Position numbers and translations under genes: made by a program. This document shows positions 40,837-42,023 of a stretch of DNA of 64,000 bases, one piece after another. The DNA comes from a virus (Duplodnaviria > Heunggongvirae > Uroviricota > Caudoviricetes): IMG/VR virus record IMGVR_UViG_646311924_000007, positions 32,001 to 96,000 of that record. One strand, written 5' to 3'. Positions within the stretch are counted from its first letter, which is position 1; every line of letters starts with the position of its first letter. A model generated the notes under the pieces. The model ran no database searches. It saw only the letters and a list, made by a program, of their open reading frames with translations, and was not told the DNA's origin.

Positions 40837-41499
40837 ATGCTCGCCTGGAGGCTGAATTTGCAGCTGAGAATGAACATACCACCCAGGGCGACTAGGACTG
40901 TTTTTTGTGTCGGTAGCGGTCCTTCACTCACTCGTGAGGACTGTGCTGCTATAGAAAAAACTGGCTGTTCAATCATCGCGGTTAACAATTCCTGGCAGAT
41001 GTTCGATGACATTTATGCCTTATACGCCGGTGATTTGTCATGGTGGAAGCAATACGGTTCCACCATACCGGGAGGGAGGTTCCGCAAAGTGACAGCCAAC
41101 CTGGCGGCGGCGAAATCATTTTCGTTGGAGTACAGGCGATATTGTGGACCGGCGGAAGGGGTAAATAGCGGCGCGCAGGCTATCAGTCTGGCTGCTGAAT
41201 CAGGGGCTGAAGTAGTGGTATTAGTCGGCTATGACTGTTCTCTGCAAAACGGCCTTCATTGGCATGGCGCGCACCCTCAAGCACTACGGAATCCAACGCA
41301 GGTGTCTATTTCAAAATGGCAACAGCAGTTCCTGGATACCCGCAAAAAACACGCAGATTTACATATTTTGAATGCAAGTAGGAGCAGTGCAATTCAATGT
41401 TTCCCAAGAATAAATTTAGAGGCAGTGATCGCGTTATTATCGTCGGCAGTGGCCCAAGCGCCGCAAACTTTGTTGCGCCGCGCGGAGTGCCGATTATAG
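40837..41499 (+). CDS. Rossmann-like GxGPS-motif protein (paralog 1)
   Basis: VGSGPSLT near N-terminus and VGYDCS later; start likely downstream of ORF-track start. Confidence 0.4.
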   Translation: MLAWRLNLQLRMNIPPRATRTVFCVGSGPSLTREDCAAIEKTGCSIIAVNNSWQMFDDIYALYAGDLSWWKQYGSTIPGGRFRKVTANLAAAKSFSLEYRRYCGPAEGVNSGAQAISLAAESGAEVVVLVGYDCSLQNGLHWHGAHPQALRNPTQVSISKWQQQFLDTRKKHADLHILNASRSSAIQCFPRINLEAVIALLSSAVAQAPQTLLRRAECRL

Positions 41500-42023
41500 C
41501 GGTCAATGGGGCCATCGACTGGCTTAACCGCGCTTCTTATTTTTTCACACTTGATCCATCGCCAGACAATATGCGGCGCGTTGGTCGTGGCCGCCGTCGC
41601 CGTGGTGTTTGTTATTGCATGGCACTACCCGATGTTAAAGAACGTGAAGTCAGAGACGGCGTTCTGTGCTTCCGTCGTGTGGCTGAACGCGGCATGGAGC
41701 CAAAAAATACGAATTCTCCCGAGTGGTGGGCGTGGCGCTGGTCCGGACATTTCGGCCTTTGCGAAGATGAGAATGAAATTGCCAGCGGCAATAGTGCATA
41801 TGGTGCTCTGAACCTGGCTTTCCATATCGGATTCAAACATGTAGCCCTGGTGGGCGTTGACGCTACGCAAGAACCACGAGTTCACTCCGGCGGCACGCCA
41901 AAAAATCTAAGTCACCTGCCTTTGTTATTCCAGTCTGCGCGTGAACAGATTGACGTTGTTTCATGCGGGAAAATGGGAGGTATTCCGCAGATGACTCTTA
42001 AAGAATGGCTGAAGAATACATGA
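41397..42023 (+). CDS. Rossmann-like GxGPS-motif protein (paralog 2)
   Basis: [11 protein letters not shown] and VGVD motifs parallel paralog 1; start uncertain because of overlap with upstream gene. Confidence 0.4.

Follow-up and report, generated by a model that had tools for sequence, protein, structure and literature searches.

The adjacent genes pmgO and pmgP of phage P1 encode true, anciently duplicated paralogues of the MptE-like/Maf/GT42 fold, and together with pmgQ they make up a cassette that is conserved, and sometimes fused, across phages. Sequence comparison firmly places PmgP as a homologue of WaaZ, and PmgQ, on the same kind of evidence, as a GT8-like (retaining glycosyltransferase-like) protein. 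With moderate confidence, we read the three genes as a non-essential, C1-repressed, three-glycosyltransferase cassette, in which PmgO and PmgP would transfer an ulosonic acid (likeliest Kdo), PmgQ would transfer a hexose, and the acceptor would likeliest be the LPS core. The genes themselves are not new, and labels in databases had already pointed towards their fold; our additions are the link to WaaZ, the O–P–Q cassette with its fusions, the association with kdsB, revised gene starts, and the recognition of the phosphatase gene ppp as an insertion.

The locus and its regulation

The DNA analyzed here (‘the window’) is a stretch of 64,000 nucleotides that, around pmgO and pmgP, is that of a P1-like phage-plasmid (plasmid prophage). 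Positions 39800–46900 are 97% identical to phage P1, excepting one inserted element. Both open reading frames lie on the plus strand where the first-pass annotation had listed them, pmgO at 40837–41499 (220 aa) and pmgP at 41397–42023 (208 aa), and the frame overlap, put there at about 100 nt, measures 103 nt. The P1 records give the same gene lengths (663 and 627 nt) and the same overlap. In P1, pmgL, pmgM and pmgN lie upstream of the pair, and ppp and pmgQ downstream. The pmgN gene (40707–40895, plus strand; phrog_2350), which encodes a 62-aa protein of unknown function, overlaps the start of pmgO.

A C1 repressor operator, Oppp (formerly Op83), is annotated in P1 upstream of pmgN–pmgO–pmgP–ppp–pmgQ. 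It occupies positions 40680–40696 of the window (minus strand), is identical there to P1, and is partly conserved in Klebsiella and Salmonella relatives. The P1 annotation sets the pmgO–pmgP/ppp/pmgQ block between Oppp with promoter PpmgN on one side and the next promoter, PpmgR, on the other; tail genes and other pmg genes flank pmgO and pmgP, and the late promoter LPpmgL is upstream. A consensus scan for promoters and terminators across 39700–45100 was uninformative, promoter-like sites being fewer than in shuffled sequence. Since the C1 operator precedes the cassette, the genes are expected to be silent in the lysogen and expressed on induction or infection, and this repression argues against classical lysogenic conversion.

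In GenBank, the P1 genes pmgL through pmgQ carry the label ‘putative morphogenetic function’. RefSeq, following PHROGs, names pmgO ‘alpha-2,3-sialyltransferase’ and pmgQ ‘glycosyltransferase’; none of the NCBIfam models covers PmgO, PmgP or PmgQ. Our literature searches turned up data on essentiality and on expression, and none of the studies found addresses what pmgO, pmgP or pmgQ does. According to CRISPRi knock-down and deletion data, pmgO, pmgP, ppp and pmgQ are non-essential for plaque formation (PMC10695390).

The interrupted pmgQ gene and ppp

pmgQ is split in the window by an IS3-family element (IS1203/IS629-like) of 1310 bp at 42899–44208, plus strand. The 5′ fragment of the gene (42694–42898, plus strand; codons 1–68; phrog_1962) aligns to nucleotides 1–205 of P1 pmgQ, and the 3′ fragment (44209–44708, plus strand; phrog_1962, E 2e-82) to nucleotides 203–702. 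A 3-bp duplication, GAC, flanks the element, whose terminal inverted repeats are TGAACCGCCCCGG and CCGGGGCGGTTCA. It encodes orfA (42953–43279) and orfB (43276–44166), and plasmid records name its product ‘IS3-like element IS1203 family transposase’. Inactivation of pmgQ in this way fits the reported non-essentiality of the cassette genes.

The ppp gene (42005–42697, plus strand) encodes a lambda-type Ser/Thr protein phosphatase (Metallophos, E 5e-15; NF008516, 278 bits). The first-pass annotation had assigned the two paralogues, ppp and the IS-disrupted gene to one operon. They do lie together in the window, although ppp is not integral to the block: in the survey of 28 loci described below, only those of the close P1 lineage have it between P and Q, and it is therefore a later insertion, outside the core cassette.

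Gene starts and the pmgO–pmgP overlap

Because their frames overlap, it had been proposed that the second gene starts internally. We find otherwise. The pmgP frame is open merely five codons upstream of ATG 41397, and no ATG, GTG or TTG occurs in that frame between this codon and the GSGPS loop. The N-terminus of PmgP, M-[F/L]-P, aligns across 58 homologues. A Shine–Dalgarno sequence, AGGAG (41380–41384, plus strand), lies 12 nt ahead of this ATG and inside conserved S-R codons of pmgO, and AGGAG(G) is found 11–12 nt upstream of the pmgP ATG in the window and in the relatives L181, L182 and L183. The overlap itself is conserved: it is out-of-frame in the Klebsiella relative L181 (70 nt), the Salmonella relative L182 (70 nt), L183 (49 nt) and L184, an element that is ∼50% identical and in which, after correction of a mis-called start, it amounts to 109 nt. 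In the window and in all of the relatives compared, pmgP is read in frame −1 with respect to pmgO, and its ATG always falls within the C-(F/Y)-P codons of pmgO.

In the window, the dual-coding overlap (41397–41499, plus strand) specifies the C-terminal helix and tail of PmgO in one frame, and the N-terminus and Gly-loop of PmgP in the other. The two-frame constraint is limited to its first 40–50 nt. Past about residue 200, the PmgO tail is unconserved and modeled with low pLDDT, and this is why the length of the overlap varies. pmgO and pmgP are translationally coupled, overlapping genes.

It is the start of pmgO that is likely mis-set. A conserved GGAGG, followed by 6 nt and TTG, lies at 40847–40860 (plus strand), and GGAG(G)-N6-TTG is the called start of pmgO in both L181 and L182, in the latter of which it is the only start possible. 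The first 16 residues of annotated PmgO have pLDDT values below 50. The true start is probably TTG 40858, which would give a protein of ∼213 aa.

A −1 frameshift producing an O–P fusion protein was also considered, prompted by the −1 frame, by the heptamer A_AAT_TTA in the overlap (41412), and by a natural O–P fusion. This was rejected because the heptamer, absent from the equivalent position in L181, L182 and L183, is not conserved, and because the shift would remove the conserved last helix of PmgO. A second heptamer, T_TTC_CCA (41400), which L181 has lost, can be put down to the dual-coding constraint.

Two paralogues of one fold

Compared directly, PmgO and PmgP are barely alike: BLASTP aligns only the N-terminal 36 residues (14/36 identities, E 0.003), and each protein matches the PHROG family of the other (E 6e-4 and 2e-5). 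For profiles, we gathered 51 homologues of PmgO and 328 of PmgP, and aligned 41 and 58 of them, respectively. With hhalign, the two profiles match over 166 columns, nearly their full length, with ∼25% identity, a probability of 97.7% and E 1.5e-12. The proposal that the proteins are Rossmann-like paralogues was therefore right, the fold being of nucleotide-binding type, and profile searches and structure prediction alike put both in a single fold family rather than in unrelated ones. AlphaFold2 models are confident, with pLDDT values of 86.8 (PmgO) and 93.1 (PmgP). The relatives are numerous, an exhaustive HMMER search for proteins related to PmgP yielding 668 clusters at 50% identity, and those homologues with a named source all come from Proteobacteria.

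The motifs that had drawn attention to the pair are largely as described. The N-terminal loop was given as (V/I)VGSGPS; it reads IIVGSGPS in PmgP and VFCVGSGPS in PmgO, so that VGSGPS is common to both while the residue before it is C, not V or I, in PmgO. The later VG(Y/V)D motif is present as LVGYD in PmgO and LVGVD in PmgP. Invariant columns number 15 in the PmgO family and 22 in the PmgP family. Both have the Gly-loop, (N)SG and G-x-D; strand 2 is followed by an Asn and strand 3 by an Asp, and G-x-D is followed by one or two His residues (H141/H143 in PmgO, H173 in PmgP). The loop that follows G-x-D differs, HWHG in PmgO versus LSH in PmgP.

The Pfam model PF01973 (MptE-like; DUF115) matches PmgO and PmgP at 23.4 and 20.9 bits, respectively, both below the gathering cut-off of 34.6. 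Other members of the family exceed this cut-off (e.g. fusion protein P0051, 44.6 bits), and several homologues carry a precomputed PF01973 match. The three-dimensional fold of the solved PF01973 proteins, Maf (5MU5) and MptE (8SD5), is shared by PmgO and PmgP.

Relatives of known function

WaaZ (RfaZ, b3624) of E. coli K-12 is the nearest relative of PmgP in sequence. WaaZ itself matches Pfam MptE-like (E 7e-7). Against a profile of 11 WaaZ orthologues, the PmgP profile aligns over its full length (191 columns, probability 93.4%, E 2.4e-7), and the PmgO profile aligns weakly and in its C-terminal half (probability 47%, E 1.9e-4). The motifs of WaaZ occur in the same order as those of PmgP: IIFLSGPTS, IIAVNGS, LTD and SGLDLTG in the one, IIVGSGPSA, IIAVNGA, TLD and VGVDAT in the other. 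Both are soluble cytoplasmic proteins. A faint precomputed match to WaaZ_KDO_III (PF27901) is present on P0051. The differences are several. WaaZ is a chromosomally encoded product of the waa operon and has 283 aa, including an insert of ∼70 residues, whereas PmgP is phage-borne and 208 aa long; H173 of PmgP aligns with an Arg in WaaZ; and PmgP, unlike WaaZ, always has PmgQ as a partner and usually PmgO as well. In CAZy, the WaaZ family is GT73. WaaZ is treated as the KdoIII transferase of the LPS inner core, and outer-core truncation goes together with its action (PMC6358824).

In structure, both PmgO and PmgP match Maf of Magnetospirillum magneticum (PDB 5MU5) best and over the greatest length, ∼160 residues at 16% identity. 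Maf is a protein of 632 aa with additional N- and C-terminal domains for recognition of flagellin; PmgO and PmgP, at 208–220 aa, comprise the catalytic-type domain alone.

A third point of comparison is provided by the GT42 enzymes Cst-I and Cst-II of Campylobacter jejuni (2P56 and 1RO7), which have a modified Rossmann fold and the GxGPS, (T/N)SG and GxD motifs also present in PmgO and PmgP. The alignment with Cst-II is residue-for-residue at the G-x-G-P-S-L loop, at the Asn that follows strand 2, where the (T/N)SG helix begins, and at G-x-D. The GSGPS, AVN, D, (N)SG and G-x-D elements of PmgO and PmgP correspond in position to the motifs by which Cst-II binds CMP-sugars. In Cst-II, the general-base catalytic His, His188, comes after the lid; the lid region differs in PmgO and PmgP, and the position of the catalytic His probably does so too. 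In sequence, the PmgO profile finds Cst-II chains at E 0.4–1.3, which is not significant alone, and PDB sequence searches returned nothing at E ≤ 10 for the PmgP profile, and nothing for WaaZ alone. Literal sialyltransferase activity, as the RefSeq name implies, is unlikely because E. coli K-12 hosts make no CMP-Neu5Ac.

The remaining members of the fold to which the proteins can be compared are kinases: archaeal MptE, a 6-hydroxymethylpterin pyrophosphokinase (8SD5), and the thiamin pyrophosphokinases. These align over fewer residues (131–137), and the genes surrounding pmgO and pmgP show no connection with folate or thiamin.

For PmgQ, a profile of 52 homologues finds the Skp1 alpha-galactosyltransferase GlaT1 (6mw5, E 2.6e-8), a bacterial GT8 enzyme (5gvv, E 7e-5), and glycogenins (E 1e-4). 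The family has an invariant D79-L-D81 (D-x-D) and a GDQ motif. Matches to Pfam Glyco_transf_8 are weak and occur in 8 of the 52 members; PmgQ falls below the threshold of that model and, compared with GlaT1 and glycogenin, is phage-borne, ∼230 aa long and, in the window, IS-split. The LPS outer-core enzymes WaaO and WaaJ also belong to GT8.

The cassette in other phages

We surveyed 28 diverse loci that contain a PmgP-like gene. (Scans of viral contigs with P1-first alignments returned near-identical P1 copies only; a divergent first sequence gave useful diversity.) A PmgQ-like gene is present in 26 of these loci, and in nearly all it adjoins pmgP or lies within ∼500 nt of it; in the remaining two, the contig ends within the locus. 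PmgO-like genes occur in 22 loci, and a further locus has an O–P fusion. Both O and P are intact in every lineage examined, and neither is a remnant, an outcome for which the first-pass annotation had allowed. Outside of the P1 group, the cassette lies beside lysis genes, as a moron-like insert.

Natural fusions join the proteins in several ways: O–P (P0051), P–Q (P0298 and P0367) and Q–P (P0377). A further Q–P protein, P0349, ends in a weakly methyltransferase-like C-terminus (E 0.009). Fusion repeatedly, and in both orders, is strong evidence that PmgO, PmgP and PmgQ act in one pathway. In two other fusions, P0409 and P0425, a third MptE-like domain was suspected by eye at the C-terminus; it is not significantly related (hhalign probability 4%).

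Three diverged P1-like elements also carry kdsB, at 270, 242 and 180 bits against a TIGR00466 cut-off of 155, and a fourth has a decayed copy, so that the gene occurs in three or four of the 28 loci. It follows pmgQ in the same orientation at a distance of 2–3 kb, with pmgR and pmgS in between. kdsB is absent from both the window and P1. KdsB is CMP-Kdo synthetase, and the elements that encode it have no plausible Kdo transferase besides PmgO and PmgP.

What the cassette might do

Other functions can be envisaged for these proteins. PmgO and PmgP might be small-molecule pyrophosphokinases, like MptE or thiamin pyrophosphokinase, that use ATP to pyrophosphorylate a metabolite or signalling molecule in the course of host takeover or counter-defence. 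Their sole Pfam match is to a family named MptE-like, and two phosphatase genes, ppp and pap, are nearby. We nonetheless regard this as unlikely. It is a glycosyltransferase, Maf, that the two proteins match best and at greatest length in structure, PmgP is homologous to WaaZ along its full length, the constant partner and fusion partner is the GT8-like PmgQ, and relatives carry kdsB. The ppp phosphatase is a late, lineage-specific insertion, and PADLOC assigns none of O, P, Q, Ppp, M, N and Pap to a defence system.

About equally improbable, in our estimation, is that the cassette glycosylates proteins of the P1 virion or of the host surface, in the manner of Maf and glycogenin, with Kdo-type and hexose residues. 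This would suit the old ‘morphogenetic’ label and the position of the genes, past the late promoter LPpmgL and between tail and other pmg genes; the top structural match, Maf, is a flagellin glycosyltransferase, and GlaT1 and glycogenin, the nearest relatives of PmgQ with solved structures, have proteins as their substrates. Yet PmgO and PmgP are bare domains of ∼200 aa that lack the extra domains of Maf, and the nearest relative in sequence, WaaZ, is an LPS enzyme. We know of no glycosylation of the P1 virion. In other phages the genes are a moron-like insert by the lysis genes, and in P1 their knock-down or deletion causes no plaque defect (PMC10695390).

A variant of lower probability still is that just one of PmgO and PmgP is catalytic, the other being a decaying or inactive duplicate that serves, for example, as a scaffold subunit for its partner. 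The two are very divergent (∼25% identity), they differ in the loop after G-x-D, and their overlap and the O–P fusion are compatible with a heterodimer. Against this, the full set of motifs is invariant in both families, both genes are maintained intact in every lineage examined, and both proteins have confident and complete predicted folds. Finally, the earlier suggestion of a module for modification of DNA, or of some other nucleic acid, is very improbable and finds no support: a DNA-binding or base-flipping domain is absent, none of the relatives that share the fold is known to use DNA as a substrate, the specific homology is all to sugar transferases and a pterin kinase, and the WaaZ homology, the GT8 partner and the kdsB genes of relatives, with the CMP-Kdo to which these point, indicate sugar-nucleotide-dependent glycosyl transfer instead.

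On the reading that we favour, PmgO and PmgP would each transfer an ulosonic acid, likeliest Kdo from CMP-Kdo. Kdo is the likeliest because CMP-Kdo is the only CMP-activated ulosonic acid made by every enterobacterial host, and because some relatives carry kdsB. PmgQ would add a hexose from a UDP-sugar, and the three enzymes, acting as a single cassette, would build one glycan. The likeliest acceptor would be lipid A-core on the cytoplasmic side of the inner membrane, with a change to the LPS core like that made by WaaZ. Under control of the C1 operator, this would take place after induction or infection, and not in the lysogen. The LPS core is the receptor for P1, and one possible role of the change would be that fewer progeny, or fewer competing phages, adsorb to infected cells and to debris. 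Several observations count against this reading: the sub-threshold Pfam scores of both proteins, the insignificant sequence matches to Cst-II, the weak alignment of PmgO with WaaZ, the Arg of WaaZ opposite H173 of PmgP, and the scarcity of kdsB, its separation from the cassette and its absence from the window and P1.

Extended to the wider group, the proposal becomes a tentative one, which we think possible rather than probable: that P1 and many temperate phages of Proteobacteria carry an LPS-core remodelling cassette—two Kdo transferases and a GT8 enzyme, in some cases with a CMP-Kdo synthetase—that is switched on when C1 repression is lifted and rebuilds the inner core in the manner of WaaZ, whereupon newly exported LPS would lose the phage's own receptor, masking it during lytic growth, in contrast to classical lysogenic conversion. 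The LPS core as acceptor, and receptor masking as the purpose, are the more speculative parts of the scheme.

Significance

The genes considered here are dispensable in the laboratory and their fold had been hinted at before, and so we regard the finding as useful rather than surprising. P1 is among the most-used phages in genetics, and its pmgL–pmgV block is still assigned a ‘putative morphogenetic function’ by position alone. Assumptions about the starts of two of these genes, pmgP and pmgO, have been corrected, and three orphan genes now give rise to a testable hypothesis concerning phage control of the LPS core. The phage-encoded LPS modifications that we know of all affect the O-antigen; if the hypothesis is true, the cassette would be an example of a phage modifying the inner core of LPS, at Kdo.

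Start of pmgO and its overlap with pmgP

PmgO and PmgP are paralogous, glycosyltransferase-like proteins with an MptE-like fold, and PmgQ is GT8-like. No Shine–Dalgarno sequence precedes the annotated ATG of pmgO (40837). A TTG at 40858, on the other hand, has GGAGG 6 nt upstream, and is the counterpart of the TTG called as the start in relatives from Klebsiella and Salmonella. As annotated in P1, pmgO is probably seven codons too long. Where pmgO and pmgP overlap, T_TTC_CCA (41400-41406) forms a formal X_XXY_YYZ heptamer in the pmgO frame, and supplies codons 2-3 of pmgP. It is retained in three of four relatives, most simply as a consequence of dual-coding constraint.

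Neighboring genes

The start of pmgO is overlapped by pmgN (40707-40895). In a CRISPRi screen of P1, pmgN scored as ‘essential’; it could nonetheless be deleted, and every gene downstream is non-essential, a contradiction that the study leaves without explanation (PMC10695390). Further upstream, PmgM (40095-40673) matches a VRR-NUC nuclease domain below threshold (E 3e-4; 21.1 bits versus a cut-off of 23.8), and PmgL (39847-40092) is small and Cys-rich, with a marginal treble-clef-type match. On the other side of the cassette, PmgS (45010-46272) is a coiled-coil protein of 420 aa with weak PADLOC matches (E 3e-4) to LmuB, an SMC-like Lamassu protein; these matches are probably an effect of coiled-coil composition. 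Polynucleotide kinase-phosphatase has a HAD phosphatase domain, and Pap (46346-46852) matches this domain (HAD_PNKP, E 2e-11).

In P1 and in the window, pap lies directly after pmgS, and neither carries kdsB, the gene for CMP-Kdo synthetase. In diverged P1-like phage-plasmids, kdsB is found beyond pmgS and a small ORF (~100 aa). Three copies exceed the TIGR00466 cut-off (L184, 9658-10425; L197, 11647-12402; L209, 11186-11974), and a fourth is decayed (L191, 11154-11926). In L184, kdsB is directly followed by a pap-like HAD phosphatase gene.

Insertion in pmgQ

Past about codon 68, pmgQ is interrupted by an IS3-family element (42899-44208; 1310 bp) of the IS1203/IS629 kind. The element comprises orfA (42953-43279) and orfB (43276-44166), has the inverted repeats TGAACCGCCCCGG and CCGGGGCGGTTCA, and is bordered by a 3-bp duplication, GAC (42896-42898 and 44209-44211). 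No record spanning the pmgQ/IS junction was found among PLSDB plasmids. The element is probably the source of the many Stx-phage matches to bases 39800-46900.

Fusions of PmgP, and the cassette outside the P1 lineage

Homologs of PmgP include natural fusions with both partners: PmgO–PmgP (P0051), PmgP–PmgQ (P0298 and P0367) and, in the opposite order, PmgQ–PmgP (P0377). P0349 is also a PmgQ–PmgP fusion, with a tail that weakly resembles SAM-methyltransferases. In P0389, PmgP is preceded by an N-terminal region that looks, judged by eye only, like a methyltransferase, and P0409 and P0425 possess a second domain besides the PmgP-like part. Outside the P1 lineage, the cassette—as P-Q or O-P-Q—adjoins lysis genes (holin, endolysin, Rz-like), as seen at loci L003 (6136-9757) and L004 (2014-3819). 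This is a typical moron position.
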